Shown in pieces: positions 1,708 to 38,947 of a DNA stretch of 64,000 nt (positions within the stretch are counted from its first letter, which is position 1; each line of letters begins with the position of its first letter). A program made the position numbers and the translations under genes. Location of the stretch: assembly GCA_036769985.1 (NCBI GenBank), contig DAIPKA010000033.1:8900-72899 (forward strand). Direction: 5' to 3'. Source of the DNA: Candidatus Hydrogenedentota bacterium (GTDB lineage: Bacteria > Hydrogenedentota > Hydrogenedentia > Hydrogenedentales > SLHB01). The notes under the pieces were generated by a model. It saw only the letters and a list, made by a program, of their open reading frames with translations. It was not told where the DNA came from and did not search any database.

Positions 1708-1737
1708 AAGCTAGATTCGCGCGGCGACTCAATGGGC

Positions 1738-1772: not shown

Positions 1773-1800
1773 GGTCTTTTGCGCGTTGATGGGACAAAGA

Positions 1801-1833: not shown

Positions 1834-1857
1834 GATTTCGACTCTAGCTCGTAGACC

Positions 1858-5350: not shown

Positions 5351-7324
<1,974 letters not shown>

Positions 7325-7328
7325 GTTC

Positions 7329-10282: not shown

Positions 10283-10305
10283 AAGGATTTATGGAGCGTA
10301 TTCAC

Positions 10306-10335
10306 TTGACGGAGAGTTCGCCCTGGTGATAGAAT
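10306..10335 (+). promoter_or_regulatory. Putative sigma-70 promoter for the fusion-pilB-pilT operon
   Basis: TTGACG (10306-10311), an 18-nt spacer, then extended -10 TGaTAGAAT (10327-10335). It lies about 125 nt upstream of ATG 10463. Sequence match only. Confidence 0.4.
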
Positions 10336-10462
10336 CGACACTGGTGTATGCTACACTGGCATCGTCGTTTCGTCGGCGCAGGATGACAGGCGCGAGGGTC
10401 CCCGGCTCCGGGGACACGGGCGAAGGCGGCGGCCATGACGTAGGCCAGGAACGAAGAGAAGC

Positions 10463-12337
10463 ATGCTGGGTTATCACCGATACAAAAAACAGAGTGGCGA
10501 GACGGAACCGGCCGCGAGTGATGCCTCCGCGAACGCCGCGATGACGCCCACTCCGCATGCCCAGGTGCAAGGCCTCGGTGAGGCCCTGGTGGCCCACGGA
10601 GTCATCTCGCAGGCACAGCTCGACCAAGCGTTGGCGATCCAACAGAAGCAGGGCGGCTTCGTGGGCCAGATCCTGGTCGACCTTGACCATGTTAAGCAGG
10701 ACGCGATTGTTTCGTTTCTCGTCAAGGAGTGCAAGATCCCGCATCTGAGTCTGCTCGACTACGATGTGAGCGACGACCTCATGCACCTGATTCCGATGGA
10801 GTTCTGTCTCGAGCACCACCTGCTTCCCATTGACAAGCTGGGCAAGATTCTGACCGTGGCCATGGTGGACCCCTTGGATTCGGCCACGCTGGACCAGGTT
10901 CGGGAGTTGTGTCCGGACCTGCGCATCAAGCCCATTCTGTGCAACTGGCGGCACTTCGAGACGGTGGCCCACAAGTTGTTCGGCGTGCAGGCCGGGGTTT
11001 CGAACGAAGTCACGGCGGACAGCCTTGGCCTGCCGAAGCTCCGCACTGCCCCGAAGGCGCCGTCTCCTTCCGAAAGCCCGGAGGGCGCGGAGGAAGCGGC
11101 ACCGGAAGCACTCGAGGAGGTGGTTGCCAATCTGGCTGCGGGTGCGGCGGAGACCGCAGCGGCCGCGGCGGGTCCCGAGGTGCCCCCACAGCCCCGTGGA
11201 CACGTCGCGGTGCCCGGTGACGCAACCGGGCCGGAGACAAGCGCCGCGCCGGTGGAAGAGGCCCCGTCGGCGGCGATCAGGGAGCCCGAGGCGCCTCCGC
11301 CGCGGCGGCACGAAGGCGGCGAGGGCCGTGGCGTCGAGGATGCGGCGGCTGCGCCGCTGGTCGCGGCGGTGCGTGAAGCCGTGCGCGAGGCGTCCGAGAA
11401 CCTGCTTCGGGCGGTGCCGTCGCTCCATCTCGCGCAGGCCGAGTCGGCGGCGGTGCGTGAGGCCGCCATGCGCGATCTCGTCGAGGCGGGTGAGAAACGC
11501 CAACGGGTTCAGCACGCATCGGTGCGGCCGTTCCGCCCCGATAGGGGCGCGCTGGGCCCGGAGATGCAGGAGGATGATCGGCACGTGATGGACGCCATGG
11601 CGTCTGAGACGCCGCTGGCGGGATTCACCTTCGAGACGTTCTACGCCGGAAAGGTCAACGAGTTTACATACAAGCTGGGACAGGCCGTGTCTGCCAATCC
11701 GGGCGGCGAATACAATCCTTTCTTTCTCTACGGCAATGTCGGGCTCGGGAAGACTCACCTCATCAACGCCATAGGGAACGCGATTTGTGAGTCGTCGCAC
11801 AACCGGCGCGTAGGTTACGTGTCGGCCAGTCACTTCGCGCGCAGACTGGCGGAGGCGCTCCAAGGGCATGCGCTCGAGATGTTCCGTCAGAACTACTGCC
11901 ATTGGGACGTTCTGATTCTGGACGACATTCAGTTCATGGGCGGGCGCATCGAGGCGCAGGAGGAGTTCTTTCACATCTTCAACGTGTTGCACCAGGAGGG
12001 ACGCCAGATTATCATTGCCGGAGACAAGGCGCCGGAGAAGCTGGGTCTGCTGGAACAGCGGCTCGTATCGCGTTTCGCCGGCGGCATTGTGGCGGAACTC
12101 AGGCCGCCCGAAATGGCCACGCGCCTGGCCATCCTGCGGCACTTGCTGAACGAGGCGAAGGCGGATATTCCGGAGGAGATCATTTCCGTCATTGCCATGC
12201 GCGTTCCGAACGACATGCGCATGATGGTCGGGGCGTTGCGGAAGATCATCGCCTTCGACAAGCTGATCGATCAGAAAATCACGTACGAGATGGCCAACGA
12301 GATTCTGAGCCATCTCGGTGTGGTCGAAGCGGCATAG
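10463..12337 (+). CDS. T2SS-E N-terminal (MshEN-like) domain fused to a DnaA/Hda-type AAA+ domain; no DnaA domain IV
   Basis: Residues about 36-172 form a T2SSE_N-like domain (GLGEALVAHGVISQAQLDQALAIQ..LLPIDKLGKILTVAMVDPLD). Residues about 175-385 are an Ala/Pro/Glu-rich linker. Residues about 388-624 are DnaA domain III-like: FTFETFYAGKVNEF, Walker A GNVGLGKTHL, Walker B LILDDIQF, RLVSRFAGG, NDMRMMVGAL. The protein ends at the domain III/IV boundary. Confidence 0.75.
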   Translation: MLGYHRYKKQSGETEPAASDASANAAMTPTPHAQVQGLGEALVAHGVISQAQLDQALAIQQKQGGFVGQILVDLDHVKQDAIVSFLVKECKIPHLSLLDYDVSDDLMHLIPMEFCLEHHLLPIDKLGKILTVAMVDPLDSATLDQVRELCPDLRIKPILCNWRHFETVAHKLFGVQAGVSNEVTADSLGLPKLRTAPKAPSPSESPEGAEEAAPEALEEVVANLAAGAAETAAAAAGPEVPPQPRGHVAVPGDATGPETSAAPVEEAPSAAIREPEAPPPRRHEGGEGRGVEDAAAAPLVAAVREAVREASENLLRAVPSLHLAQAESAAVREAAMRDLVEAGEKRQRVQHASVRPFRPDRGALGPEMQEDDRHVMDAMASETPLAGFTFETFYAGKVNEFTYKLGQAVSANPGGEYNPFFLYGNVGLGKTHLINAIGNAICESSHNRRVGYVSASHFARRLAEALQGHALEMFRQNYCHWDVLILDDIQFMGGRIEAQEEFFHIFNVLHQEGRQIIIAGDKAPEKLGLLEQRLVSRFAGGIVAELRPPEMATRLAILRHLLNEAKADIPEEIISVIAMRVPNDMRMMVGALRKIIAFDKLIDQKITYEMANEILSHLGVVEAA

Positions 12338-12356
12338 CCGCATAGGAGGAAGCGTT

Positions 12357-14087
12357 ATGCCTCCACGAGCAACCCGGCGCCGGTTGCCGGATATGCTTCT
12401 CGAGCAGGGACTCGTCACTGAGCGAGAACTCGAGGAGTGCATGGCAATCCATCGTGCCACCGGACAAGGTTTGGCCGACATCCTCGTCGAGAGAAACTAC
12501 CTTTCGGAAGAGGATCTCGTGGTCACGCTCAGCGAACAACTCGGCATTCCGCACATGCGCGTCGGCCACTACAACGTTCCCAAAAGCATCCTGGACGAGA
12601 TTCCCGAGACGCTCGCGCGCCAGTACATGATGCTACCGGTCTCGTTGACCGGCGACGTATTGACGATTGCCATGGCCGACCCGCTCAATATCATGGCTCT
12701 CGACGATCTCCAGATGCTGACAAGCTACGAGATTGAGCGCGTCGTCGCCATCCGCTCGGAACTGGCCGCCGCCATCGACAAGAACTATGGCGGCGGCAAG
12801 GCGGATGAAATGCTGGACGAGTTGCTCGGCAAGCAGGACGCCGAGCAGGCGAAGATCCAGGAAGTCGAATCCAAGGGAGAGGAGATCGAGGACGTCAGCG
12901 CCCTCGAGGCCGGGTCGGAGGACGAGCCCGTCAAGAAACTCGTCCGGCTGGTCGTCTTCAACGCCTTGGAGGTGGGGGCCAGCGACATCCACCTCGAGCC
13001 CTTCGAGAAGGAAATGCGGCTACGCTACCGGATCGACGGTTCGCTCGAAGAGGCCAAAGGTCCACCGAAGTCTCTACAGACCAAGATCATCGCGCGGCTG
13101 AAAATCCTGGCCGGCTGCAAGATCGACGAGAGCCGGCTGCCACAAGACGGCCGGTTCCGCATGCGATACAAGGGCAACGATATCGATTTTCGTGTTGGTT
13201 TCCTGCCATGTCGGTACGGCGAGAAGGTGGTGCTTCGCGTGCTCGACAAGAGCAGTCTCACGCTCGACCTTGACAAGATGGGGTTCGAAGACCAGCCGAT
13301 GGATGCCTTTCGGGAGGCGCTCGATCGCCCCAACGGCATGGTGTTGATGACCGGACCGACCGGGAGCGGCAAGACGACGACCCTCTACAGCGCCCTGTTC
13401 AAGCTGAACAAGGTGGACGTCAACATCGTGACCGTCGAGGATCCCATCGAGTACGAGCTCTACGGGATCAACCAGGTCCAGGTGCACGCCCGCATCGGCC
13501 TCACCTTCGCCGACGCGTTGCGCCAGATCTTGCGACAAGACCCGGACATTGTGATGCTGGGCGAGATCCGTGACAGCGAGACGGCCGACGTCGCCGTCAA
13601 GGCAGCGCTCACCGGACACCTCGTGCTCAGCACGCTCCACACCAACGATGCCGCCGGCGTGTTTCCCCGTCTGATCGATATGGGCGTGGAACCATTCCTG
13701 GTCCAATCGTCCGTCGTCTTAGCTGCGGCGCAGCGTCTGCTCAAACGCATCTGTGCCAGCTGCAAGGAGCCCATCCGTGTTCCGGCGGATGCGCTCGAAC
13801 GGATCCAGTTCAGGCCGGACCCGGGATCTCCGCCAGCCGAATTTGCTCGGGGACGAGGTTGCGCCAAGTGCAAGAATAGTGGCTACAAGGGCCGGCTGGC
13901 GACCATCGAGGCCATGCCGTGTTATCCGGAAGTGCAAGACCTCATCATGCAACAGGGATCCGGCAACATTATCAAGCGAACGGCCATGGCCTGCGGCATG
14001 CGGTCGCTCCGCCAGAACGCCTTGTCGAAGGCAGCCCGCGGCTTGACGACCATCGACCAAGTGCTTGAGCATACGATCGCAGACTGA
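12357..14087 (+). CDS. pilB: Type IV pilus assembly ATPase PilB (GspE family)
   Basis: An AGGAGGA SD precedes ATG 12357. T2SSE_N domain, Walker A GPTGSGKTTT, Walker B IVMLGEIRD, His box TGHLVLSTLHTN, C-terminal CASC..CAKC tetracysteine. 576 aa. Confidence 0.9.
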   Translation: MPPRATRRRLPDMLLEQGLVTERELEECMAIHRATGQGLADILVERNYLSEEDLVVTLSEQLGIPHMRVGHYNVPKSILDEIPETLARQYMMLPVSLTGDVLTIAMADPLNIMALDDLQMLTSYEIERVVAIRSELAAAIDKNYGGGKADEMLDELLGKQDAEQAKIQEVESKGEEIEDVSALEAGSEDEPVKKLVRLVVFNALEVGASDIHLEPFEKEMRLRYRIDGSLEEAKGPPKSLQTKIIARLKILAGCKIDESRLPQDGRFRMRYKGNDIDFRVGFLPCRYGEKVVLRVLDKSSLTLDLDKMGFEDQPMDAFREALDRPNGMVLMTGPTGSGKTTTLYSALFKLNKVDVNIVTVEDPIEYELYGINQVQVHARIGLTFADALRQILRQDPDIVMLGEIRDSETADVAVKAALTGHLVLSTLHTNDAAGVFPRLIDMGVEPFLVQSSVVLAAAQRLLKRICASCKEPIRVPADALERIQFRPDPGSPPAEFARGRGCAKCKNSGYKGRLATIEAMPCYPEVQDLIMQQGSGNIIKRTAMACGMRSLRQNALSKAARGLTTIDQVLEHTIAD

Positions 14088-14139
14088 AGAACGTTCGGGG
14101 ACTTCGCTGAGGAACTACTCACGGGAGGACGACGACACT

Positions 14140-15213
14140 ATGGTGCCAAGTTGCAAGGAACTCCTGACCAAGATGATCAAGGAGGGCGCCAGTGATATGC
14201 ACATTGTCGTCGGCGCGCCGCCGACGATTCGAGTCCACGGTAGTCTCGAGCCGCTGCCCGGCTACGACCCGTTGACGCCTGATGACACCCAAGAGATCAT
14301 TTACACCGTGATGACGGAAGAGCAGATCGCGGAGTTCGAGTCCGAGTTCGAGTGCGATCTCTCGTTCGGCATCGAGGGTCTCAGCCGATTCCGGCTCAAT
14401 GTCTTTCGCGACCGAGGCAGCACCGTCGCGGCGTTCCGCGCGATCCCCTTCGAGATCCTCTCGTTCCAGGACCTAGGCTTGCCTCAGGTGGTCTCGGACT
14501 TTGCCTACCGCCCGACGGGTCTCGTGCTGGTCTGCGGCGCCACGGGCAGCGGCAAGTCCACGACGTTGGCCGCCATCATCGGCAAGATCAACGCGGAGCG
14601 CGCCGTACACATCATCACCGTCGAGGACCCCATCGAGTTCCTCCACTCGCACAACCGATCCATTATCAACCAGCGCGAGGTCAATGCCGACACCAAGAGT
14701 TTCGGTGCGGCGCTCAAGCGGGTGTTGCGCCAGGATCCCGATGTGATTCTGATTGGCGAGATGCGCGACCCGGAGACAATTCAGGCTGCGTTGACGGTGG
14801 CCGAGACCGGCCACTTGGCCTTCGCCACGCTGCATACCAATGATGCCCTTCAGACCATCAACCGTATCGTGGACGTGTTCCCGTCCACCCAACAGGAGCA
14901 GATTCGGACCCAGCTTTCCTTCGTGCTCGAGGGCGTGGTGGTGCAGCAGTTATTGCCTCGCGCGGATGGTCTTGGGCGCGTGCTCGGACTCGAGATCATG
15001 GTGCCGAATCCGGCCATCCGCTCTTTGATCCGCAGTGAGAAGCTCGAGCAAATCCCATCGATGATCGAGATCGGTACGAGCGAGGGCATGATCACGATGA
15101 ATCAGTCGCTGTTTCGTCTCGCTCGCCGGGGGCTCATCACGACGGAAGTGGCCATGACGCGGAGCCCCAACCAGGAAGGCCTTGAACGGCTCATGGAAAA
15201 GGGACGTGAGTAA
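14140..15213 (+). CDS. pilT: Twitching-motility (retraction) ATPase PilT
   Basis: A GGGAGGA SD precedes ATG 14140. 357 aa with no N-terminal extension. ASDMHI, GATGSGKSTT, VILIGEMRD, TGHLAFATLHTN. Confidence 0.9.
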   Translation: MVPSCKELLTKMIKEGASDMHIVVGAPPTIRVHGSLEPLPGYDPLTPDDTQEIIYTVMTEEQIAEFESEFECDLSFGIEGLSRFRLNVFRDRGSTVAAFRAIPFEILSFQDLGLPQVVSDFAYRPTGLVLVCGATGSGKSTTLAAIIGKINAERAVHIITVEDPIEFLHSHNRSIINQREVNADTKSFGAALKRVLRQDPDVILIGEMRDPETIQAALTVAETGHLAFATLHTNDALQTINRIVDVFPSTQQEQIRTQLSFVLEGVVVQQLLPRADGLGRVLGLEIMVPNPAIRSLIRSEKLEQIPSMIEIGTSEGMITMNQSLFRLARRGLITTEVAMTRSPNQEGLERLMEKGRE

Positions 15214-16837
15214 GACGAGCCTGGATCACAGGCGACCCGTTTCGGAGAGTCACGGCGGTGTGCCGTGGATCATCGGCATCACGCGCGTGGCGGTGCTGAT
15301 TGTTGCGGCCTTCGGCCTCTACTGGTTTGGTGAGCTCTTCATCAGCCGGGGCGGCGTCTATCGCCTCGCGGTCCCGCGCTACATCGTCATCTTTCTGGTG
15401 ACGCTCTACGCCTTCAATCTGATCACCGGTGTGGTCTACCTCGGCGTGCTGCACCGCCATCGGGCCGCCACGGCCATCATGACCTGGACACAGGTCCTCC
15501 TCGATTTCAGCGTGGTGGTGAGCACGATCAGTGTCACGGGCGATAGCAACAGCGTGTTCACGGTGCTGTTGGTCATTGTCATTCTCGAGGCCGGGCTGTT
15601 GTTGGGACTGCCGCAAGGTTTTCTGTTTGCCATGCTGAGCATCGTATACGTGGCTGTTCAGGCATGGCCCAGCGATAGGGCCCAGGTGCCTCCTGAGCTC
15701 TGGTACGATATCCTTATTCAGAGCCTTGCCTTTCTCTTCACCGCCTTCATCAGCGGCTACTGGAACAACCTGATCTTCCGGCTGCGCTCGTTTCAGCGCG
15801 AGATCCTGGACAACCTGAGCAGCGGGTTTCTGATCACGGATCGCACGGGCGTCATTTCGGCTCAAAACCGCGCGGCCGATGAGATGCTGGGCCTGCCGGA
15901 CGGAAGCGCGCTGGGCCGTTCCGCTATCGAGATCCTCAGGCCGGAGTCCGGCGGCGAGTGTCCCATTATGACGGCGCTCCGGTCGGAGCGCGATTTCACG
16001 TCGTTCGAGTTCCACGCGGTGACTCATTCGGGGGGCTCCAAGCTGCTCGGACTCAGCACAAATCGCATCTACGACAAGCGCCACCGGCTCACGGGTTTGA
16101 TTGCGTCGTTCGCCGATATGACGGAAGTCGACACGATGCGTCAGGAGCTGCACCGGCAGGATCGCCTGGCCGCCTTGGGCGAGTTGGCCACCGACGTCGC
16201 GCACGAGATACGCAACCCGGTCGCCGTCATCCGTAGCGCGGTGGAAGAGTTGCAGAACAGTATCGAGTCGCCGGAGAAGGTCCGGAAGTTGGCGGCGCTG
16301 GCTCTGCGGGAATCGGATCATCTCAATCGGATCGTCCGCAGTTTCCTTGACTTCACGCGCAATCCCGTCCGCAAGCATGACGTGTTCGACGTGTGTGCCT
16401 TGTTGCGGGAGGTGGCCGATTCCCTACGGCATCAGTACGCCGACGCGTCGGCGCTCTCCGTCGAGCTCCGGAACGATGATCTCTCGTTTTCGGTTGCCGG
16501 TGACGCGTCGCAGATTCGGCAGGTGTTCATGAATCTGGGCACGAACGCGGTGGAAGCCATGGATAGGCGTGGCCTGCTGGCGATTATCGTCGCGCCTGCG
16601 GGACGATCGATCGAGATTCATTTCGACGACGAAGGCAGCGGCCTCGCGCCGGATCAGGTTGCGCGCATGTTCGAGCCTTTCTATACTACGAAGCAGTCGG
16701 GCGTAGGCATGGGCCTGGCCATCTGCATGCGGATTGTCACGGCCCACGACGGCACGCTGCGCGCCGTGCCGCGGGAGCAGGGGGGGACGCGGATGACGGT
16801 GCGATTGCCGGCTGCCCGCAACCCGCAGACGGAGTAA
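15182..16837 (+). CDS. Membrane sensor histidine kinase (PilS-like)
   Basis: Roughly 6 N-terminal TM helices, a PAS-like segment, the H-box ELATDVAHEIRNPV, and HATPase N/G boxes (NLGTNAVEAM, DEGSGL, GVGMGLAI). Overlaps the pilT 3' end; an alternative GTG start exists at 15206. Confidence 0.8.
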   Translation: MNGSWKRDVSKTSLDHRRPVSESHGGVPWIIGITRVAVLIVAAFGLYWFGELFISRGGVYRLAVPRYIVIFLVTLYAFNLITGVVYLGVLHRHRAATAIMTWTQVLLDFSVVVSTISVTGDSNSVFTVLLVIVILEAGLLLGLPQGFLFAMLSIVYVAVQAWPSDRAQVPPELWYDILIQSLAFLFTAFISGYWNNLIFRLRSFQREILDNLSSGFLITDRTGVISAQNRAADEMLGLPDGSALGRSAIEILRPESGGECPIMTALRSERDFTSFEFHAVTHSGGSKLLGLSTNRIYDKRHRLTGLIASFADMTEVDTMRQELHRQDRLAALGELATDVAHEIRNPVAVIRSAVEELQNSIESPEKVRKLAALALRESDHLNRIVRSFLDFTRNPVRKHDVFDVCALLREVADSLRHQYADASALSVELRNDDLSFSVAGDASQIRQVFMNLGTNAVEAMDRRGLLAIIVAPAGRSIEIHFDDEGSGLAPDQVARMFEPFYTTKQSGVGMGLAICMRIVTAHDGTLRAVPREQGGTRMTVRLPAARNPQTE

Positions 16838-16843
16838 ACCTCG

Positions 16844-18250
16844 ATGATCGCTAAGCAACGGGTGTTGGTTGTCGACGACGAAATCAACATGCGCGAACTG
16901 CTCGAGATCATTCTCGATACGGACGGATACGAAGTGGTGTCAGTTCCCGACGTGCCGTCGGCTATTGAGGCGTGCAACGCTACGGTGTTCGACGCGGTCC
17001 TCACCGATCTCCGCATCGGTAACGAGAAAGAAGCCGGCATGGAACTCCTGACGTGGCTCAGCGAGAATGCGCCGACTACACCGGCCATTATGATGACGGC
17101 CCACGGATCCGTCGAGACGGCCATCGAAGCCATGAAGCGCGGGGCCGACGACTACGTTATGAAACCGTTCAAAAACGACGAAATCCGGCTGCTGATTCGC
17201 CGCTCGATCCAGCAACGCAATATCCTTCGAGAGAATGTCGCGCTCCGTCGTGACCAGGTGGCTCGGGGGAAGATCACCAACATCATCGGCAACAGCCACG
17301 CTATCGAGGAAGTCAAGACCATGATCCGGCGCGTGGCTATGCTTCCCAGCACCATCGCGATCCACGGGGAAAGCGGCGTCGGAAAGGAAGTCGTGGCCCG
17401 CGCCATCCACACGCTCAGTGCCCGGGCGGACAAGCCCTTTGTCGCCATCAACTGCGGCGGGATCCCCGAGCACCTCCTCGAGAGCGAATTATTCGGCCAC
17501 AAGCGCGGATCGTTCACCGGCGCCGTAGACGACAAGGAAGGTCTGTTCGTGGTGGCGCACGGAGGGTCCTTGTTTCTCGACGAGATCGGCGAGATGCCCC
17601 TCAGTCTCCAAGTCCGTCTCCTGCGCGTCCTCGACAACAACAGCGTGATGCCCGTGGGCGGAACGTCCCAGATCAAGGTCGATGTACGCATCGTTTCGGC
17701 CACGAACCGCGACCTCGAGAAGATGGTGGCCGACGGCACGTTCCGCAAGGATTTGTTTTATCGCCTGAACGTGATTCCGGTGTATGTGCCGCCGCTCCGC
17801 GACCGGGCGGATGACATTCCGCTGCTGGCGCGGCATTTCATCGAAAAGCACGCCTCGAAGATGGGAAGGCAGCGCCTAGGCATCTCGAAGGCCGCAATGG
17901 CGGCCCTGCAGCGCTTCGCCTGGCCCGGCAATGTTCGTGAGCTCGAGAACGTCATGGAGCGCGCGGTGGCCCTGTGCTCGAGTGAGGAGATCAACGTGGA
18001 CGATCTACCTCAAAACGTGCGCAATTTCATGGCCGAGCCGGCAGAGTGCATGGTCGAGCTTCCCCCCGGGGGCCTCGATCTCGAGGCCCGCATGGACAAG
18101 ATTGAGTCGGCCATGATTGGCCAAGCACTCGAGCGCTCCAAGCACTCGCAGAAGCGTGCGGCCCAACTCCTCGGTCTTACGCCGCGCTCATTGCGGTACC
18201 GCCTCAAGAAGCACGGGCTCGAAACCGACGCTTCCGACGAAGACGAGTAG
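16844..18250 (+). CDS. Sigma-54-dependent response regulator (NtrC/PilR family)
   Basis: Receiver domain (VLVVDDE..LTDLRIG), sigma-54 AAA+ domain (GESGVGKE, ESELFGHKRGSFTGA, RLNV), C-terminal Fis-type HTH (AAQLLGLTPRSLRYRLKKHG). Starts 6 nt after the kinase stop. Confidence 0.85.
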   Translation: MIAKQRVLVVDDEINMRELLEIILDTDGYEVVSVPDVPSAIEACNATVFDAVLTDLRIGNEKEAGMELLTWLSENAPTTPAIMMTAHGSVETAIEAMKRGADDYVMKPFKNDEIRLLIRRSIQQRNILRENVALRRDQVARGKITNIIGNSHAIEEVKTMIRRVAMLPSTIAIHGESGVGKEVVARAIHTLSARADKPFVAINCGGIPEHLLESELFGHKRGSFTGAVDDKEGLFVVAHGGSLFLDEIGEMPLSLQVRLLRVLDNNSVMPVGGTSQIKVDVRIVSATNRDLEKMVADGTFRKDLFYRLNVIPVYVPPLRDRADDIPLLARHFIEKHASKMGRQRLGISKAAMAALQRFAWPGNVRELENVMERAVALCSSEEINVDDLPQNVRNFMAEPAECMVELPPGGLDLEARMDKIESAMIGQALERSKHSQKRAAQLLGLTPRSLRYRLKKHGLETDASDEDE

Positions 18251-18258: not shown

Positions 18259-21200
18259 CTACAGGTAGCCGAGCGCCTCGAGTTGCTTGCGCGTGTCGCC
18301 CGCCGCGTCCTTGCCGAGCGCCGGCTCGGCGGCATTCTCGCGAATGTGCAGGCCCATGTCGTTGAGGAGACGATCCAACTCCTCCTCATCGTTCTTGCGC
18401 GGATTCTCTCCGCCGGCGATGTTGGTTTGCTCGCCGGGATCGGTCGCAAGATCATAGAACGCGACGGGGGCGAATCCACGCGGATTATCCTCGTTGGCGT
18501 GGACGATCTTGGCGCTCGTCGTGCGGACGGCCTGCAGATCGTTGCCCTCGAAATCCACCTCGGCGTAGACATATGCCGTATCGGCGTTGACGTCGTTACC
18601 GGAACGATCGACGAGGGGTTTACCGGGCATGGCGGCAGGCTTTTCGAGGCCGGCGTATTCAAGGAAGGTTGCCGGGATATCGATGTGCCGCGCAAAGTGC
18701 GCATTGGTCTCGCCGGCGCGGCCATTGGCCGGTAGCTTGACGATCAGTGGCACATGCATGAGCTCGTCGAATAGGGTCTGACCGTGCCACCACCCCTGGT
18801 GATCGTAGAACTCCTCGCCGTGGTCGGCCGTGAATACAATCAACGCGTCATCGTAGAGACCGCGATCGCGCAACCCCTGGAACAACTCGCCGAGATACTT
18901 GTCCATGTACTCGATGTCGTCGTTGTAAGCCTTCTTCATGGGCTCGGCCATCTTCGGGTCGGGATCGCCCATACGCGCGCGGGCGTAGCCGACGCCAGGT
19001 TTGTCGTGGTCCATGAAGGGATCGTGCGGATCCATGTAGTGCAGGAAGAGATAGAACGGCGTGCCTTCCGGTACCGCGCCGGCATCGAGCCATGCCAACG
19101 CGTCGTGGGTGACGACGTCCGCCGGCTGATAGAACTCGGTTACGTCGAGCTTGTTCGAGATCTTCGATGCAACCTTCTGTTTGCCGTGCCGAAGCACCTC
19201 GTAGAGCGAGAGTTTCGAGGCCGAGGGCGTTGCGCCGAAATAGTAGACGCTCGGCTTGAGGTCGGTGTAGTCGACGAATCCCTGGTCGAAGCTCCAAATG
19301 CTCATGATGTTCGGATTGTTCGACAGGCCCTTCGTGTAATAGCCGCCGTCGCGGAGCACCTCGGCTACGGTCTCTACCTCATCCGGCAGCGACGAGGTCT
19401 TCGTGGTGGCGGTATGCGATTCGGGATACAGTCCTGTGAAGAGGGTGGCGAAACTGGGCTTGGTCCACGTTGACTGGGCGAAGCAATCCGCGAAGAAGAG
19501 GCCGTCCTTCTTGAGCGCATCAAGGTTGGGCGTTTCGGCGGCGGCGGCGTCCGAATACATTCTCAAGTAGTCCGCCCGGAGCGCATCCGCCGCCACCAGG
19601 ATGATGTTCGGGCCGTGGACGCCGGCGGTTGGCTCGAACGGCGCCGCGGCTACCGGCGCCGGTTTCATGGCCGCACTGAGTCCGACACCGACGACGACGA
19701 GCACTCCGTACGCCACGGCGCCGGCCACGAGGCCTTTCATACGCCCGCCGCCCACGATCCAGAGGATGACGCCGACAACCAGGGCTGCCGCCAGTCCGAT
19801 GCCGAGGGCCGCGACCAGGATCTGGCCATTCTGGCTCATGGTAGGCGCGTGGCCCTCGAGCACGTCTCGTTGGAACCGGAACCGGCCTATCACGAGTACG
19901 CCTGCCGCCAACACACCGCCCAGGCTAAGCGCAAAGGTGGTGCGGCCGCTGGCGAACCGGTCCACGAGCAGGTAGAAGAATGCCAGCGCGCCGGCCACGC
20001 CGAGTCCGACCAAGGCGAACATGACCCCATAGGCCAGCGGCCCCCACCAGAACAGGCCGAGCTCCTGAAGGCCCTGTACGGTGCGGACCACCCAGCCGGC
20101 CTCGGCCAGGGCGATCACGGCGCCGCCGAGCGCGCCACCGAACAGGCCGGCCAGCACACAGCCGATCAGGCTACACCGGTACCTCTGCACGGCTTCCGGC
20201 GCCAGATGCAGGTATTCCTCAGTCTTGGCGGCGGCCGCTTCGCGGCGCGCCTGAGCCAGTTCCGCTTGGAGTTCCATCTTGCCGGGCCTCTTGCGCGCGA
20301 CATAGATGGGCAATCCGATGAGGAATGGAATGACGTCGCCTATCCACCACCCGAGGTGCGCGAAGGTGGCCGCCGCCGCCGCGCCGCTCTTAGCGCTCAA
20401 CAAGGTGACAAACACGATCTCGCGAATGCCTTCGCCCCCGATGGACGGCCCGAGCACCGTTCCGTAGATCATGAGCGGACTGGCGAACAGGATGTCGAGG
20501 AGATCGGTGTTGGTGGCGCGGATGGCCATCATGGTGCCAAAGTACATGATGCACGTGCCCACATGCACCAGAAAACCGAAGAACACCGCCAGGAGCAGAT
20601 CCCACCGGTTTCCGCTGTACGCCGTCGCGGCCGCGCCCAGCTTGAGAAGCTTATTCCGCACGAAGCCCGGTGTCGGCACCACAGACACGAGCACCTGAAT
20701 CACCCGAGGGTTCAGCAGCAGCATTAGGAACACCGCCACCATGCCGCCGAGAACCGCCAGAATGACGGCCAAGACCGGCACGTTGATGTTCAGCAAACGG
20801 AATCCGAGCGGAAACGTCAGGAAGACGAGGCCCGTCAGCGCGATGAAGCCAATGAGCTTCTCGACAGCGATCACGGTGACGCACTTGATGACCTCGCCGG
20901 TGTACCGCGAGGAATCGTAGAGTCGGTAGCCGTCCAGACCGATGGTTCCCGGCAGGAAGATGCCAATCGTGCGGCCCACGAACCAGCTCTGGACCAAGTA
21001 CCAGAACGGAATACTCAGGCCTTGCCCGTGGAGTAGAAGTCGCCACCGGAGCACTCCGCACAGCATGCCGACTAGCTTCACGACCAGCGCAAAGGTCAGC
21101 CAGAACGCGACCGCATGCGCCTGCGACTCACGAATCTCGCGCATCATGTCGGCCGGGCTGATGTCGCCAAACCGGTCGGAGGGAAGCCCGAACGTCTCCG

Positions 21201-21342
21201 GTCGGAACAACAGCAGGAAAAGACCCGCCGTCACCGCAAGTTTGATCACCCACCCAACCGACTTCTTCACAGACACAGTTTTTCCTCCGGTGCGCCGCCG
21301 CTCTATCGAATAGTCAGCATTTCCCGTTCGGGAGAGTACCAT
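18259..21342 (-). CDS. Fusion: MprF/LPG-synthase-TM (flippase-like) polytopic domain plus extracytoplasmic alkaline-phosphatase-superfamily (sulfatase/phosphodiesterase-like) domain
   Basis: The ORF is open to a TTG at 21384; the first ATG is at 21342. The N-terminal approximately 560 aa are polytopic ([21 protein letters not shown].., many helices). The C-terminal approximately 430 aa carry [48 protein letters not shown] and [9 protein letters not shown]. A Thr occupies the nucleophile position and there is no C/S-x-P-x-R. Confidence 0.7.
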   Translation of the reverse strand: [1027 protein letters not shown]

Positions 21343-21512
21343 AGACTTCTCTGGCCTCACAACCTGGCGAGTGCTCGGTCCCAAAGCGCGCGGACCTCGC
21401 CGTCTCCTCGTCTCGTCCTTTCCGGCAGGCCTTGCATTTGCCTATCGCCGAGGTCACACTGGCGTTCGGAACGCGGTCACGACCATTCAGAACGTCCTGA
21501 CGAGGAGGCACC

Positions 21513-21926
21513 ATGAGATTCGCCACCGAATACCTTTGGTTTGAGACCAAGCGAAAGCGCGAGTACATCAACATGACGGACACCGTCGAGGGTATCGTCG
21601 AGAAGAGCGGTATTCGTGAAGGCATGGTGTTGGTCAGCGCGATGCATATTACCGCGGGCGTCTATGTCAACGACGCGGAGTCCGGCCTGATCCAGGATAT
21701 CGACGAGTGGCTCGAGCGGCTTGCGCCCTTCAAGCCCGATTACCGGCACCACCGAACCGGCGAGACCAACGGCGACGCCCATCTCAAGAATCTGCTTGTC
21801 CATCACGAAGTGGTGGTGCCCATCACGGACGGACGCCTCGACCTCGGTCCGTGGCAGCAGATCTACTACGCCGAGTTTGACGGCCTGCGACGCAAACGCG
21901 TCGTCGTGAAGGCTATGGGCGACTAG
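21513..21926 (+). CDS. yjbQ: YjbQ/UPF0047 family protein (secondary thiamine-phosphate synthase-like)
   Basis: 137 aa with a GAGGAGG SD. Family-typical [39 protein letters not shown] and [14 protein letters not shown]. Confidence 0.85.
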
Positions 21927-23393: not shown

Positions 23394-24455
23394 ATGTACA
23401 CGCAGGTTCAGGCCCGTGCCGTTGCCCGCCACGGCAAGGCCGTGGAGCTTCGGAGCGACACGTTCACGGTGCCGACCCCGGCCATGCGCGAGGCCATGGC
23501 CAATGCGGCCGTCGGCGATGATGTTTATGGCGAAGACCCAACGGTTAGGGCGCTCCAATCGCGCGCGGCCGAACTCATGGGCAAAGAGGCCGCGCTATTC
23601 TTGCCGTCGGGAACCATGGCCAACCTCGTGGCCATCCTGGCGCAGACGCGTCCCGGCGACAGTATCATTCTGAGTCGCGAAGCGCATCCCATCAACTACG
23701 AATCGGGCAATGTGGCCATGGTGGCGGGCGTGTTGCCGAGGCCGGTGATCGCCGAGTATGGGATTCTGAGCGCGGATGACATTGCGCCGTGGATCGTCCC
23801 GCGCGACGCCGACCATCATCTCGCGCCGACGACGTTGGTCTCGATCGAGAACACGTCCAACCGGGGCGGCGGCGCCGTCTATCCCATTGAGACGGCGGCG
23901 GCCATCGGCGATCTCGCCCACCGGCACGGCCTGAGGGTGCACTGCGATGGCGCGCGGATCTTCCACGCGGCCGTGGCGTCGGGCGTGCCGGCGATCGAGT
24001 ACGCCTCGCATACGGACACGATCAGCTTCTGTCTTTCCAAGGGCCTTGGCGCGCCGGTGGGTTCGGTGTTGGCGGGTGATGCGGCGACCCTCGACGTAGC
24101 GCACCGGTTCCGGAAGATGCTGGGGGGCGGCATGCGACAGGCCGGCATCCTTGCTGCGGCGGGTCTGTTTGCCCTCGATCATCACATCGGGCGACTCCGC
24201 GACGACCACCGGCGAGCCCGGCGCTTCCGGGAACTGGTCGAAGGAACGGCCGGCGTCTCGTTTCCCATGCCATCGCCGACGAACATGGTGTATTTCGAGG
24301 TGGCCGATGGGCCGGGCACGGCGGCGCGACTCCGGGAATTGGGGGTGTACGTGGGCGTGACGGCCGGGCGGCTACGGGCCGTGTTTCACCTCGATGTTTC
24401 GGACGAGGATGTGGAAATCGCCGCGGACGCGGTCAGGCAGGTGCTGCAGCCTTAG
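23394..24455 (+). CDS. ltaE: Low-specificity L-threonine aldolase
   Basis: AAGGAG SD. LRSDTFTVPTPAMREAMANAAVGDDVYGEDPTV, SGTMANL, and the PLP-lysine context FCLSKGLGAPVGS. Confidence 0.85.
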   Translation: MYTQVQARAVARHGKAVELRSDTFTVPTPAMREAMANAAVGDDVYGEDPTVRALQSRAAELMGKEAALFLPSGTMANLVAILAQTRPGDSIILSREAHPINYESGNVAMVAGVLPRPVIAEYGILSADDIAPWIVPRDADHHLAPTTLVSIENTSNRGGGAVYPIETAAAIGDLAHRHGLRVHCDGARIFHAAVASGVPAIEYASHTDTISFCLSKGLGAPVGSVLAGDAATLDVAHRFRKMLGGGMRQAGILAAAGLFALDHHIGRLRDDHRRARRFRELVEGTAGVSFPMPSPTNMVYFEVADGPGTAARLRELGVYVGVTAGRLRAVFHLDVSDEDVEIAADAVRQVLQP

Positions 24456-26097
24456 TCGCCGCGGATTCCGCCGGTTCGGCCGCCGGTTCGTCCGGGCACT
24501 CCAACGTCAGTTCGCCGGTGATTTCGCCGTCTTCATGCGCGATCAGGAGCGACACCTCGCGCATTGCGGAGACGCGTTCAGACCAGGGCGCAAGAGCCTC
24601 GTCCAGCGTTGCAGACGTGTAGCCTCGGAGCATACCGCTCTTGGCCCATTCCATGGCCAGGGCACGGACGGCCTCGATGCACGGTCCCGGCTTGATGCGC
24701 ACGTATACGTTGCCGGGCACGTCCAGGCGGGTCTCCGATACACCGCCGGCCAGAACGGCCTCGAGGGCCGTCCGACTGGTGCTCACGAGCAGACCGGTAT
24801 CCCACGGAACGGCCGTAGGCTCGATCGATGGGCCTCCAATCATCGGCAGCCACGCTCGGCCCAGCTCCGCGTCGTAGCGCGGAAACGTATCCCAGGGATA
24901 CAACCCTTCCGGCGTTGTCGGGATTGACGCCAGCGTAGCCGCGATGGCCTCGCGCTCGCCGCCGAATACGCCGACGAACTCTGGAACTGGCACCATTTCA
25001 TTCACGTCAACCCCCCGCCAACACAGGGCGAAACCCGGGCCGAGGGGCGCCACGAGGCCGGCCAGAAAGCGGCGGGCCAAGTCCCCCGTCGTCGGCTCGA
25101 TGTCCTGCGGTGTCCACGCGCCGATGAGATCGTCCAATGACATCTCCGACTCGAAGGCCTCGGCCACCTCCGACCAGAGCGCCTGAACGGAGACACCGAG
25201 GTCGGCCGACAACTCGATGAGCCCCTCGGGCGGGACTTGCAGTGGTCGTGGTGCGCTTGCTGAGAGCACGCCGGAAAAGCGCTCTTGCCATTGGGGCTTC
25301 AGCGCGGCGCGGTAACGCAGGCAGGCTTCGGACGCATCGATGCGCACCGCAAAGCTGAACGAGGCCAACATGGTGCCGGCGCGTCCCCACGCCGACGAGA
25401 CCGGCGTGTCGGGCGGCGGCGTGTCGGGAAAGCGGATGGCGCCGTGCAGGTCTTCGCCGCCGAAGGCTTCAGCGGTTTTCGCAAGCTCCTCACGCGTCAT
25501 GGCCTCATCTTCGGGCAGCGTCAACGCGCGGATCAGGGCGTCGCGCGAAGGACTGGCCGCCAGCACGCGGCCGCGGACGGCATAGTAGACGCCGAGCTTC
25601 TCGACGCGGCGCACGTTGAGACCGCCGGCCTCGTCTTCTTCAATGCCCGGCACGAATCGTCGGAGCTTCTCGGCGAGGCAACCGATTCGCCTCATCTTGG
25701 TCACAAATAGGATGTCGCTGAACTGCTCGGTGTCGTTGCCGGAGATGTGGCACACGGTGCCGATCAGGTTGTTGATGACCCACTCCGGGGCGCCCAAGTC
25801 GCCGCTCAAACGCGCCAACGCTTCGCCACCCCAGGACTCCGGCAGCGCGTCCCACACGTGTGACGTCGCCAGCTTCGCACGCCTGTCGAGCAAGTTGCTT
25901 GCCGAGATCCGGAAGGCCTGCTCCCTGGGAATGATACGACTGACGGCGCACGAGTCGCGACTCGCCCAGACCCCGTAAATCAGGACGGCCAACACCATCA
26001 CGGCGCCATACGCACAACCGCGCCGTCCGCGGCCTCGAGGCACCGCCGACTGAATGGGTCGCCGCGATCGCGGATATGTCCTGAGTGCCTCGCTCAT
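24433..26097 (-). CDS. Hypothetical membrane-anchored protein (unknown function)
   Basis: 554 aa. Basic N-terminus, one TM helix (AYGAVMVLAVLIYGVWA), then a large presumably extracytoplasmic domain with no motif I recognise. Its ATG overlaps the upstream gene's TGA (ATGA at 26094-26097), so it is translationally coupled. Confidence 0.6.
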   Translation of the reverse strand: MSEALRTYPRSRRPIQSAVPRGRGRRGCAYGAVMVLAVLIYGVWASRDSCAVSRIIPREQAFRISASNLLDRRAKLATSHVWDALPESWGGEALARLSGDLGAPEWVINNLIGTVCHISGNDTEQFSDILFVTKMRRIGCLAEKLRRFVPGIEEDEAGGLNVRRVEKLGVYYAVRGRVLAASPSRDALIRALTLPEDEAMTREELAKTAEAFGGEDLHGAIRFPDTPPPDTPVSSAWGRAGTMLASFSFAVRIDASEACLRYRAALKPQWQERFSGVLSASAPRPLQVPPEGLIELSADLGVSVQALWSEVAEAFESEMSLDDLIGAWTPQDIEPTTGDLARRFLAGLVAPLGPGFALCWRGVDVNEMVPVPEFVGVFGGEREAIAATLASIPTTPEGLYPWDTFPRYDAELGRAWLPMIGGPSIEPTAVPWDTGLLVSTSRTALEAVLAGGVSETRLDVPGNVYVRIKPGPCIEAVRALAMEWAKSGMLRGYTSATLDEALAPWSERVSAMREVSLLIAHEDGEITGELTLECPDEPAAEPAESAATKAAAPA

Positions 26098-28622
26098 TCG
26101 TTCTCGCCTTCCGACGCACTATCGACATGGATCTCGAAAAACTCGCCTGGCACGCCATCCTCCCCGGCAAAGCCGATGCGCACAAGACGTCGGCTCGGCA
26201 GGAACACGACGCCGAAGTCTGTCTGCTCACTCCAAACGCGCGTCGAGTCGGCCATCAGGGGCTCCGTGTCGCGGAGGGCGCGCTCCAGTTCAGCCGCCGA
26301 GATGATGTGCTCTTCCTCGAGCAACTCGGCTACGCGTCGGTGTCGCGCGCAGGCGACGGGATCGGCCTGTGACGCATCGGTGGCCACGCCTAGGAGCACG
26401 TCGTTCTGCGGCAGGCGCACCTGGGGCATAGGGCCGCACTCGAGCACGCACGCCCGGTCCCGCTCCGTCTTCTTCGCGGGCGTGGCCAGCATCACATGGT
26501 AGCCGGCTAGTTCCGGGATATCCCGGATCTGGGCCAGGGCGCGATCCAGACCGTCCGTGTCTTGCAGGATGCTTCGGAGCACGATGCCAAGCGGTGGGCC
26601 GGCCACGGGACGCGGTTCCTTCTCGGATTCATCGGCCAACATGGCCGCCAGCGATGGGACGTCGATTCCGGAAACGGGAGTGGTTGATACCGGCGCCGCG
26701 CACAACACGAGGCCGGAATCGTTCATGCCGGCGAAGGTTCCCATACTCGTGGTGGAACTCACCGCGACGAACCGATGCCCTTCCTTTGGCGCGACATCCG
26801 TAACGAGCATCGCTCCGAGGCCGTTCGCGGCGCTATTGAACCCCACGAGTAGATCATCCGCGCCGGCCCGTTCTCCGAGCGCCGCGAACAGCGTGCCGGC
26901 CAGTGGCCCGGCTGCCGGCGCCGACGGCTGCGCGCTCTCGAGAAGCCATAGGGCGTCGAAGGGGAGGCCGAGGACCTCCGCCTGGCCGGCGAGGCCATCG
27001 ATCACGTGCTGAGATACGCCGTACAGGCGAGGCCGCGCCTTGATCGCCGAGGCCGGCAAGAGCAGCGGCGTCGGATCGAGGTATCGCCCTAGGAAACGGC
27101 CCAGTCCGGTTTCGGGGATCATCTTCGCCTCGGCGATGCTCGCCACCACCCGGTCCTTGTACGCGCGCTCCATCTCGTCGCGGAAAGCCAGGGCGCGCTG
27201 CGCGCCCATGGCGAAGTCCGTTCCGCGCAAGGTCACCCACCGTGCCCCATTGTGCGTTTCAACGGCGGGCGGCTCCTCGGCTTCAGCCTCCTCGTCTTCA
27301 CCATGCGGTGCCCGACTGGTGAGTAGGGCCAGCTGAACGTAGAGCCACTGCGCGATATGGGGTCCGAAGAAGTTCATCGAGGCTTCATAGGAGGCGGTAC
27401 CGTACAGGTCCACGGGGGCGAAGTATCCCAGGAAATCGTTCGCCAGGCCCACGGTGAACTGGGCCGCGTAACCCCATTCCGCCGCGCGTCGGCGGAGTTC
27501 AAGTCCGATCTGCACGCACGGCTCGCCAGGCAGGAAATGAACGGCGAGCGTTTCAGGGGGGGGCGTTTGTGCCGTTTCGCCGGGTGCCGCGCTCTGGACC
27601 TCGACCTCGAGCACCTGGAGTATCCCTTCCCTCGGGAGAAGGGCGTCCGCCAAGGATCGCGGAAGACTCGGCGCCGCTTGGGCTACCCGCAAAGCCGCAT
27701 CCCCGCAGACGACACTGCCCGCGACTTCCCACGTGCGCTCGCCCAATAGCCGGCCGAGCGATTCCGTTCGCTCCCATCCTTTCTTGGCTTCGGGATTGCC
27801 CGGTCCCTGGTTTCCCTCGGCCCCGTTCAGGAAGAGCGCGATGGTGTCGCCGCCGGCGAGGGTCTCGATCGTCGCACAACAGTAACCAGGGAAATCGGCG
27901 GAGATCGAGAATAGATCTGGACCGTCAATGGTCGTGGGATGCATGGCGAAGTTGGCCACGACCGCGATCGGCACGCCATCGGCATTCTCAACGCGAATGA
28001 CCCCCAACTGCGTATCCACGGGTCCACCGTCCTCTTGGCGGTTGACGGACAGGCCTTCCGCGACGCCCGCCGCAAAACCCACGGCGGCCCGCTGATGGCT
28101 GGCCCGCGCACTTTGCATAGCCTGGACGAAGGCCTGGGCCGTCGCGTCCAGTACCTCGGGCATGAATCGGCCCGAGACCGCCCGGAACGGCAATGCGCTG
28201 ATCATGCCGCCTTGGCCGCTGTGGGTGTGGGTGGCCGTCAAGATGATGAATCGAGGGCGATCTGTTTCGGTGGAAGAACCGTCGCGTAACGAGGTCGCGG
28301 CGAGTTGGTGGATGCGCTCGCGAAGCTCCGGGTTGATCAAGCACAGATCCGCGCTGAGGAGGAACACTTCCGTCTTGCCATCGTCGAGGTACAAACAACG
28401 CACCCAGAGCGGATCGTGCACATCCCTTGACTCGCGGCCCAGTCGCGCCCCATAGCCGTTGAGCGGCGTGCCCACGGGTGGGGTGATCGCGACCTTCGCG
28501 GCGCCGGCCTCGATCGCGCTCGCCGCGTGATCGGCGCCCAAGCCGCCCACAAACGCCAAGGCGAGGATCGTCGCGAACGCGCGCCGACGCGCCGAATATC
28601 GCCATCGGTTATTCATACTCAT
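26094..28622 (-). CDS. Secreted neutral/alkaline ceramidase-like domain fused to a C45/Ntn-hydrolase-like C-terminal domain
   Basis: Tat-like signal (SARRRAFATILALAFVGG..AASA). The N-terminal half matches ceramidase-family motifs (GAAKVAITPPVGTPLNGYG, DPLWVRCLYLDDG, TATHTHSGQGG). The C-terminal approximately 390 aa show a C45-like pattern (AGTLFAALGERAG..LLVGFN..GTFAGMNDSGLVL) with Gly-Thr where Cys-Thr is usual. The C-terminal call has low certainty. Confidence 0.65.
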   Translation of the reverse strand: MSMNNRWRYSARRRAFATILALAFVGGLGADHAASAIEAGAAKVAITPPVGTPLNGYGARLGRESRDVHDPLWVRCLYLDDGKTEVFLLSADLCLINPELRERIHQLAATSLRDGSSTETDRPRFIILTATHTHSGQGGMISALPFRAVSGRFMPEVLDATAQAFVQAMQSARASHQRAAVGFAAGVAEGLSVNRQEDGGPVDTQLGVIRVENADGVPIAVVANFAMHPTTIDGPDLFSISADFPGYCCATIETLAGGDTIALFLNGAEGNQGPGNPEAKKGWERTESLGRLLGERTWEVAGSVVCGDAALRVAQAAPSLPRSLADALLPREGILQVLEVEVQSAAPGETAQTPPPETLAVHFLPGEPCVQIGLELRRRAAEWGYAAQFTVGLANDFLGYFAPVDLYGTASYEASMNFFGPHIAQWLYVQLALLTSRAPHGEDEEAEAEEPPAVETHNGARWVTLRGTDFAMGAQRALAFRDEMERAYKDRVVASIAEAKMIPETGLGRFLGRYLDPTPLLLPASAIKARPRLYGVSQHVIDGLAGQAEVLGLPFDALWLLESAQPSAPAAGPLAGTLFAALGERAGADDLLVGFNSAANGLGAMLVTDVAPKEGHRFVAVSSTTSMGTFAGMNDSGLVLCAAPVSTTPVSGIDVPSLAAMLADESEKEPRPVAGPPLGIVLRSILQDTDGLDRALAQIRDIPELAGYHVMLATPAKKTERDRACVLECGPMPQVRLPQNDVLLGVATDASQADPVACARHRRVAELLEEEHIISAAELERALRDTEPLMADSTRVWSEQTDFGVVFLPSRRLVRIGFAGEDGVPGEFFEIHVDSASEGENE

Positions 28623-35039: not shown

Positions 35040-35071
35040 TTTCACCGGAGTGAACGCACGCCGCTGCGCTC

Positions 35072-38892: not shown

Positions 38893-38947
38893 CGTGCTAT
38901 TCCTTCTTCTCGGGGGCGCCATGGGCGCCGATGCTTGTCCAGTCGCC

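Follow-up and report, generated by a model that had tools for sequence, protein, structure and literature searches.

The gene and its product

A 64,000-nucleotide stretch of DNA from a Candidatus Hydrogenedentota bacterium (GenBank assembly GCA_036769985.1, contig DAIPKA010000033.1, positions 8,900 to 72,899; here 'the window') contains a minus-strand gene whose product joins an MprF-like membrane domain to a domain of the alkaline phosphatase (AP) superfamily. The protein comprises three modules—a membrane domain of the PF03706 family, five further transmembrane (TM) helices, and a C-terminal enzyme domain of the PF00884 family—and the features of the gene are collected in Table 1. In the list of open reading frames (ORFs), the gene forms a single unbroken frame, 18259-21384, that encodes 1041 amino acids (aa) when counted from a TTG codon. 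The biological start is probably not this TTG but the GTG downstream of it, because GGAGG precedes the GTG by 7 nt and the product, which then begins MSVKKSVGW and is 1005 aa long, agrees at its N-terminus with its homologues. Residues are numbered here according to the 1041-aa maximal ORF; for the GTG-start protein, subtract 36. A scan around the gene found no promoter-like site, and the terminator-like matches it returned were all within coding sequence and occurred at background frequency.

Fused and split forms

There are at least 120 homologous clusters, all with PF03706 plus PF00884 and all approximately 1000 aa in length, an agreement far in excess of what chance would give. Those listed are 49-72% identical to the query, with the exception of P0001 (100%), and those that are named come mostly from metagenome-assembled genomes of Candidatus Hydrogenedentes/Hydrogenedentota. 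The fusion is not rare, then, and its architecture is already visible to annotation pipelines, which label the products 'sulfatase-like hydrolase/transferase' or 'arylsulfatase A-like enzyme/YbhN'. An earlier note, made by a model from the letters of this DNA, had named a frameshift joining two separate genes as something to be checked for. None is present: the fusion is real and conserved. An artefact of frameshift or assembly can be rejected on several counts, for the frame is unbroken, the 120 clusters come from many assemblies and share both the fusion and a conserved linker, and the full-length AlphaFold2 (AF2) model is confident (pLDDT 88.7, pTM 0.78).

When residues 396-1041 were searched exhaustively, 10,116 representatives matched at E < 1e-30. 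The 150 best of them were taken together with the query; of these 151 sequences, about 51 consist of the first membrane module, the five further helices (TM9-13) and the AP domain, and about 66 of TM9-13 and the AP domain alone. The latter figure is an upper estimate because some of the short representatives are truncated genes. TM9-13 and the AP domain thus constitute a conserved unit, found together in the fusions and in the stand-alone forms alike.

At one related locus (related loci are designated by L numbers), the fusion is split. L017 has a 335-aa PF03706 gene (L017:4932-5939) 62 bp upstream, on the same strand, of a 637-aa gene for a TM region and a Thr-type AP domain (6001-7914), and each product is 35% identical to the corresponding half of the query. 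Modules that one lineage has as a fusion and another as neighboring genes are a classical sign of functional coupling (the 'Rosetta stone' pattern), and genetic coupling of this kind is what we observe here. Two PF01663 Phosphodiest genes lie upstream of the split pair (1083-3113 and 3249-4910), and a gene for an outer-membrane porin of the Alginate_exp type lies downstream (7961-9262). At L007, a few genes from the fusion, there is a 691-aa paralogue (L007:2023-4098) with a multi-TM N-terminus and an AP domain 26% identical to that of the query; it has the motifs W-T-P-P-S-F and DHGEEFWDH..HG, and the same ALGYL C-terminus. One genome can therefore hold both fused and unfused forms.

Membrane modules and topology

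The identity of the first module is a direct observation. PF03706 (LPG_synthase_TM) matches residues 45-342 with 75.8 bits, well above its gathering cut-off of 33.4, while TIGR00374 falls below its own (17.8 versus 43.2). The module has eight helices and two putative re-entrant hairpins (residues 127-162 and 295-333), which are the hallmarks of the first transmembrane domain (TMD1) of MprF, and the flippase-like assignment made in the earlier note stands. It is the best-conserved part of the protein, with a mean identity of 66% and many invariant polar residues. In PaMprF, TM1-8 make up TMD1, in which TM3 and TM7 are re-entrant hairpins and which ends in the cytoplasm, and TM9-14 make up TMD2; the transport domain scrambles lipids promiscuously, and the enzyme fused to it determines its role (PMC11980842). 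A search of PDB sequences with residues 15-590 gave no match, whether the single sequence or the family profile was used; for the TM region, MprF was recognized by fold comparison only.

Beyond the PF03706 region, the AF2 model has five further helices within residues 396-572, where helices had been expected to about residue 575. Their profiles have no similarity to the membrane anchors of EptA or LapC. Because MprF TMD1 ends in the cytoplasm, and an odd number of helices follows, the AP domain most probably faces the periplasm, as the earlier note had supposed. The charge bias points the same way: by a hand-made count over 121 family members, the predicted inside loops contain on average 19.4 lysines plus arginines (K+R), and the predicted outside loops 10.0. 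Stand-alone TM+AP proteins display a bias in the same direction, although it is weaker.

A sulfatase scaffold

What kind of enzyme the C-terminal domain resembles depends upon whether one looks at the whole or at the active site. As a whole, it matches PF00884 (Sulfatase) at residues 592-912 with E 7.6e-45 and 153.9 bits, above the curated cut-off, and PF16347 (SGSH_C) at residues 863-995 with E 3e-14; the match to PF01663 (Phosphodiest) is weaker (E 4e-15, 56.6 bits). These were profiles that the earlier note had proposed to run, together with PF03706, and its estimate of where the domain begins, approximately 19620, was close to the position found, approximately 19614. Among NCBIfam profiles, those for arylsulfatase, choline-sulfatase and PehA match with E 1e-33 to 1e-38, versus 2.5e-7 for LtaS, 1.3e-5 for LapC and 1.6e-3 for EptA. 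Every NCBIfam match is below the cut-off of its family. The PehA equivalog NF045661, a phosphonate monoester hydrolase (PMH) profile, scores 115.6 bits against a cut-off of 900; NF038282 (PbgA/YejM/LapC) scores 23.8 against 825; and the phosphotransferase hidden Markov models score 16.8 against 561 (EptA), 18.7 against 1200 (MCR-12), 29.6 against 970 (LtaS) and 16.4 against 493 (EptB).

Comparisons with solved structures concur. All PDB sequence matches of the AP domain are to S1 sulfatases or PMHs, and so are the Foldseek matches, with target-normalized TM-scores of 0.6-0.7, or 0.82 in the case of a shorter sulfatase module, 6hr5. To judge from these sequence and fold matches, the domain as a whole is far nearer to S1 sulfatases and PMHs than to NPP, LtaS or EptA, the reverse of what the earlier note had claimed, namely that it aligned better with the latter than with true sulfatases.

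A transferase-like active site

In alignments with PDB sulfatases, Thr641 occupies the position of the Cys or Ser that becomes formylglycine, and Phe645 that of the motif arginine. The trio W-T-K is invariant in 121 out of 121 family members, in which the motif reads W-T-K-[PA]-[SA]-F. Across the 150 representatives, which extend down to 34% identity, it becomes W-T-[KR]-[PA]-[SA]-[FVTI]; Thr is present in 146 of the 148 that align here, and Arg is found at +4 in none. Formylglycine is excluded because Thr is invariant and Arg never occurs at +4, and the candidate of a conventional formylglycine sulfatase was rejected, the C/S-x-P-x-R motif being absent. The Thr nucleophile position in the context T-K-P-S-F had been recognized from the start, and its ACC codon correctly placed. 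All of the motifs quoted in the earlier note are present, too, with one correction: the 20-letter stretch assigned to 19450-19479 is encoded at 19414-19473, and 19450-19464 accounts for TKPSF only.

Other positions are conserved as well. D600, R603, D605, H657, N690, H787, D854, H855, E857, E858, H862, H867 and E874 are invariant or nearly so, His787 being present in 150 of the 151 sequences. The cationic sulfate-binding residues of S1 sulfatases—the Lys of GKWH and a later Lys—are not found in their places: the first is replaced by Asn689 in alignment with 5G2V, and the second, in 4UPI, aligns with Gln869/His867; the ends of these alignments are moderately reliable.

Profile alignment to Escherichia coli EptA (hhalign 94.5%, E 1.6e-8) pairs six catalytic positions, set out with their MCR-1 equivalents in Table 1; the roles of the MCR-1 catalytic residues, including His395, have been described (PMC5031297). 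By these alignments, the scaffold is that of a sulfatase or PMH, and the catalytic hexad is that of lipid-donor phosphotransferases of the EptA/MCR-1 type. The likeness to LtaS and EptA perceived in the earlier note thus survives for the catalytic residues and lapses for the scaffold, for which the structural matches are all to sulfatases and PMHs.

Table 1. Features of the fusion gene in the window, and sulfotransferase genes at related loci
Feature	Locus	Coordinates	Strand	Remarks
Whole gene, probable true extent	window	18259-21276	-	GTG start 21276-21274, stop 18259-18261, 1005 aa; maximal ORF reaches TTG at 21384
Shine-Dalgarno GGAGG	window	21284-21288	-	7 nt upstream of GTG start; read from sequence
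Module 1, MprF TMD1/PplT (UPF0104, PF03706) lipid flippase/scramblase-like domain	window	20296-21276	-	residues 37-363; eight helices
Charged linker with amphipathic helix, predicted cytoplasmic	window	20176-20295	-	residues 364-403; AF2 helix 369-388; family mean 6.9 K+R in loop
Module 2, five TM helices, TM9-13	window	19669-20175	-	residues 404-572; cytoplasm to periplasm (predicted); five long AF2 helices
Module 3, AP-superfamily domain, sulfatase/PMH scaffold, predicted periplasmic	window	18262-19614	-	residues 591-1041; Pfam, PDB sequence matches, Foldseek
Asp600, first metal ligand (predicted)	window	19585-19587	-	aligned to Glu of EptA GETSRAEN; MCR-1 Glu246; first Asp of sulfatases; invariant
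Nucleophile motif W640-T641-K642-P-S-F645	window	19450-19467	-	Thr codon ACC 19462-19464; in place of sulfatase C/S-x-P-x-R; Thr641 aligned to second Thr of EptA CGTAT (nucleophile); MCR-1 Thr285
H782-Y-M-D-P-H787-D-P motif	window	19018-19041	-	His787 aligned to His of EptA GSHGP; MCR-1 His395
D854-H855-G-E-E...H862...H867 block	window	18784-18825	-	Asp854/His855, predicted metal ligands, aligned to EptA SDHGE, MCR-1 Asp465/His466; His867 aligned to His of EptA LHG, MCR-1 His478; invariant
Sulfotransferase, divergent from fusion	L006	8416-9432	-	
Sulfotransferase, divergent from fusion	L007	8794-9807	-	
Sulfotransferase, divergent from fusion	L013	4848-5807	-	
Sulfotransferase, divergent from fusion	L014	4824-5825	-	
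Sulfotransferase, divergent from fusion	L015	4821-5834	-	
Sulfotransferase, divergent from fusion	L016	1-612	-	
Sulfotransferase	L012	3474-4490		

Gene neighbors and a recurrent sulfotransferase

In the window, the fusion gene is flanked by a convergent gene for an NtrC-type regulator (16844-18250), which comes to within 9 bp of the fusion gene's stop codon, and by a divergent UPF0047 gene (21513-21926). Farther out, the neighbors are of the housekeeping sort: FtsH, FolP, GlmM, PilB/PilT, 3-deoxy-D-arabino-heptulosonate 7-phosphate (DAHP) synthase and threonine aldolase. The regulator closes a plus-strand type IV pilus cluster (12318-18250) that encodes a PilB-like ATPase (T2SSE plus MshEN), a PilT-like ATPase, a PAS histidine kinase and a sigma-54 NtrC-type response regulator, the last two resembling PilS/PilR.

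At related loci, the flanks vary, and genes for envelope glycans recur: glycosyltransferases of families GT2, GT4 and GT9, PMT/ArnT-like proteins, BamA, UDP-sugar enzymes and GDSL lipases. At L009, for example, the same-strand flanks of the fusion are BamA (POTRA plus Omp85; L009:4594-6828) upstream and a 667-aa NPP-type Phosphodiest protein (10162-12165) downstream, the latter with a twin-arginine signal and a possible lipobox (RRDFLAAGAAAGVALGCG).

One specific neighbor, and only one, recurs among the relatives: a sulfotransferase of 320-340 aa (PF13469/PF00685) that is linked to the fusion gene in seven of 12 independent loci. It is divergently adjacent in six of these (L006, L007, L013, L014, L015 and L016) and three genes away in L012, and in L014 and L015 it is adjoined by a gene for adenosine 5'-phosphosulfate (APS) kinase (4200-4814 and 4071-4685, respectively). 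The sulfotransferases are 63-76% identical between loci. The fusion proteins linked to them are only 46-72% mutually identical and are spread over the family, and the other flanking genes differ. The closest solved relatives of the sulfotransferase are CurM and olefin-synthase (OLS) enzymes, which act on hydroxyacyl chains. Beyond the Pfam domain, it has a conserved and very basic C-terminal tail, which could bind membranes. No sulfotransferase is present in the 64-kb window, nor in L001, L002, L009, L010, L011 or L017, and so, as far as the gene described here is concerned, the link holds only in its relatives.

Proposed function

We propose, with a probability that we put at about 0.58, that the gene encodes a three-module inner-membrane protein in which a lipid scramblase is coupled to an enzyme that, in the periplasm, transfers or hydrolyzes phospho-esters with Thr as nucleophile. 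The MprF-TMD1/PplT module would shuttle lipids from one leaflet of the cytoplasmic membrane to the other, and the five further helices would take the chain across the membrane to a metal-dependent enzyme in the periplasm. The scramblase module would bring a phospholipid, or a head group linked to some other lipid, into the outer leaflet next to the enzyme, and could carry the lipid product back. Thr641 would attack the phospho-ester of the head group—a sulfo-ester is less likely—to form a covalent enzyme intermediate that an envelope acceptor might resolve by transfer, or water by hydrolysis, and the outcome would be remodeling of envelope lipids or glycans. That translocation is coupled to head-group chemistry was also the proposal of the earlier note: the coupling of the modules is borne out by the split genes of L017, whereas the type of reaction (transfer or hydrolysis) and of group (phospho or sulfo) is something that we infer, as we do the topology and the lipid substrate.

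The envelope-glycan genes that recur at related loci speak in favor of this proposal. A number of points weigh against it. The fusion gene stands alone in the window, with no envelope genes adjoining it, and the sulfotransferase conserved in its relatives hints at sulfo rather than phospho chemistry. The enzyme domain has its nearest kin among hydrolases, namely sulfatases and PMHs, rather than among transferases. The pairings of D600 and T641 with EptA come from global-mode alignment and are of moderate confidence, for the local alignment covers only residues ~779-914, the part from H787 to H867; the global-mode pairings are, at least, consistent with the sulfatase alignment. For the topology, the grounds are homology and charges counted by hand rather than a dedicated predictor. 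In MprF, moreover, the lipid groove lies at the interface between TMD1 and TMD2, whereas TM9-13 of the present protein are unlike TMD2 and do not superpose on it; scrambling by the fusion protein is therefore not assured. For PF03706 proteins that stand alone, a flippase function is itself still to be proved (PMC12713373).

The sulfotransferase invites a different reading, the chief alternative, in which it would use 3'-phosphoadenosine 5'-phosphosulfate (PAPS) to sulfate a lipid or lipid-linked head group in the cytoplasm; the PplT module would flip this; and the periplasmic domain would either remove the sulfate or pass the sulfo or sulfated group to an acceptor outside the cytoplasm, where PAPS is unavailable. 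Linkage in seven of 12 independent loci, with fusion proteins so divergent and flanks otherwise so different, speaks for such a pathway, as do the APS kinases of L014 and L015, the kinship of the sulfotransferase with CurM and OLS, which act on hydroxyacyl chains, and a scaffold closest to those of sulfatases and PMHs. We consider it unlikely nonetheless: the window and six of the related loci manage without the sulfotransferase, the cationic positions that bind sulfate are altered (Arg to Phe645, GKWH Lys to Asn689, the later Lys to Gln869/His867), and the catalytic hexad fits phosphotransferases. We know of no sulfuryl transfer via Thr in the AP superfamily. A bolder version, speculative and on the whole improbable, is that the family, with its sulfotransferase and APS kinase, forms a pathway that sulfates targets outside the cytoplasm or displays sulfated head groups, the PAPS-sulfated lipid being flipped by the PplT module and used by an enzyme with Thr for formylglycine, which passes its intermediate to an envelope acceptor and not to water. 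If so, sulfate, or a sulfated phospho-head group, would have a lipid-linked donor comparable with undecaprenyl-phosphate sugars or with the phosphatidylethanolamine that EptA uses.

The protein might, more prosaically, be a membrane-anchored periplasmic hydrolase, for instance a phosphodiesterase or phosphatase, that acts on soluble or polymeric substrates, to scavenge nutrients or trim glycans, with PF03706 a mere anchor or engaged in an unrelated role. Its nearest relatives, PMHs and arylsulfatases, are promiscuous hydrolases; NPP-type Phosphodiest genes adjoin it in L009 and L017; and its surroundings in the window are housekeeping genes. Yet this, too, appears improbable, since so highly conserved a PF03706 module, with invariant polar residues such as D151, R154 and E322, is unlikely to be a passive anchor; the modules remain linked whether fused or split; and TM9-13 suffice as an anchor in the stand-alone forms. 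A non-catalytic sensor of lipid or lipopolysaccharide, of the PbgA/YejM/LapC type with a degenerate AP-like domain, is suggested by the alignment of the AP domain with the periplasmic domain of LapC (hhalign 98.1%, E 1.4e-13), but is highly improbable, given the NF038282 score and TM regions that lack profile similarity. The nucleophile, the metal ligands and both histidines are invariant in 150 representatives, down to 34% identity, and this is the pattern of an active enzyme. To an artefact of frameshift or assembly, or to a conventional formylglycine sulfatase, we attach next to no credence: we found nothing in support of either, save that another lineage has the two parts as separate genes, and against them stand the unbroken frame, the 120 clusters with their conserved linker, the confident AF2 model, the invariant Thr and the want of C/S-x-P-x-R.

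Comparison with studied systems

MprF itself (PDB 7DUW, 6LVF, 9J8Q, 9GOE) has an aminoacyl-phosphatidylglycerol (aminoacyl-PG) synthase domain that the fusion protein lacks, its C-terminus matching PF00884 in Pfam instead. The six helices of MprF TMD2 return the chain to the cytoplasm; here there are five, which would put the enzyme in the periplasm, with its own step following translocation instead of preceding it. PplT/UPF0104 proteins that stand alone or are encoded in operons, such as E. coli YbhN, Pseudomonas aeruginosa GpgF and Clostridioides difficile HexF, belong to the same domain family and are often paired with enzymes that modify lipid head groups; the separate PF03706 gene of L017, beside its TM+AP gene, has just this operon-style arrangement. 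The known partners (a GT4 synthase, a deacetylase, a cardiolipin synthase) are cytoplasmic or act at the inner leaflet, however, and none is an ectoenzyme of the AP superfamily.

S1 sulfatases and PMHs (4UPI, 4UPH, 2VQR, 2W8S, 5G2V) are the closest in sequence and fold, the SGSH_C subdomain included, and have the same Asp...Asp-His metal site. Unlike them, the fusion protein has Thr for Cys/Ser, Phe for Arg, Asn689 for Lys, and 13 membrane helices. With EptA/MCR-1/LptA, LtaS, OpgB and GacH it shares a polytopic anchor ahead of a PF00884 domain, which in the fusion protein is predicted to be periplasmic, as well as a Thr nucleophile and six aligned catalytic positions, and outer-leaflet lipid chemistry would be expected likewise. 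It differs from this group in that its scores are far under their cut-offs, its scaffold is of the sulfatase/PMH branch, its TM anchor is not detectably related, and it has a fused scramblase-like module where they have none. From PbgA/YejM/LapC it is set apart by score and by dissimilar TM regions, and by a full catalytic set that is conserved throughout the family.

A survey of PplT proteins describes 148 architectures and names fusions to aminoacyl-PG synthase, glycosyltransferases, kinases, HAD hydrolases, O-antigen ligases, methyltransferases and phosphotransferases; its text does not mention a sulfatase or alkaline phosphatase fusion. In full-text literature we found no description of a fusion between PF03706, or a flippase, and a sulfatase, in keeping with the earlier note, which knew of no characterized example, and in literature on Hydrogenedentes, sulfatase and sulfotransferase genes were mentioned in general terms only. 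The protein would depart from studied systems in two respects: in having its enzyme on the trans side of the membrane, as its predicted topology implies, and in setting a transferase-type catalytic set upon a sulfatase scaffold.

Either departure would be instructive. The studied MprF-type partners (the MprF synthase, GpgS/D, HexS/D) modify the lipid in the cytoplasm and then it is flipped; here, flipping would come first. EptA, LtaS and OpgB consume phospholipid of the outer leaflet and release diacylglycerol. The present protein, if we read it correctly, bears on how the donor lipid for enzymes of this type reaches that leaflet and on how diacylglycerol returns, with lipid supply and recycling hard-wired to the enzyme in one polypeptide. 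A sulfatase/PMH scaffold that has independently gained the Thr-plus-His set of phosphotransferases would be a case in point for the evolution of function in the AP superfamily. And for Hydrogenedentota, an uncultivated phylum, the family offers a first handle on envelope chemistry, its fused and split forms and its sulfotransferase linkage lending themselves to testable constructs.

Other genes in the window

Four ORFs of 350-730 aa are putative genes without a Pfam match at E 1e-5 or better: 10289-12481 (-), which overlaps a 624-aa ORF on the opposite strand, 37252-39015 (+), 53820-55652 (-) and 35050-36102 (+). A 1724-aa ORF at 47782-52956 (-), in which only Big_12 and fn3 domains are recognized, near the N-terminus, is probably a large surface protein. 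A thermolysin-like M4 protease of 1250 aa is encoded at 31287-35039 (+); it combines an FTP propeptide and a TIG domain with a C-terminal type I dockerin, which is unusual in this protease family. At 26094-28622 (-), an 842-aa protein is encoded that has an N-terminal domain like those of neutral/alkaline ceramidases (PF04734, E 2.7e-19). Its gene overlaps by 4 bp a 554-aa ORF (24433-26097, -) without a Pfam match, and the two may form a lipid-related operon some 3 kb from the fusion gene.

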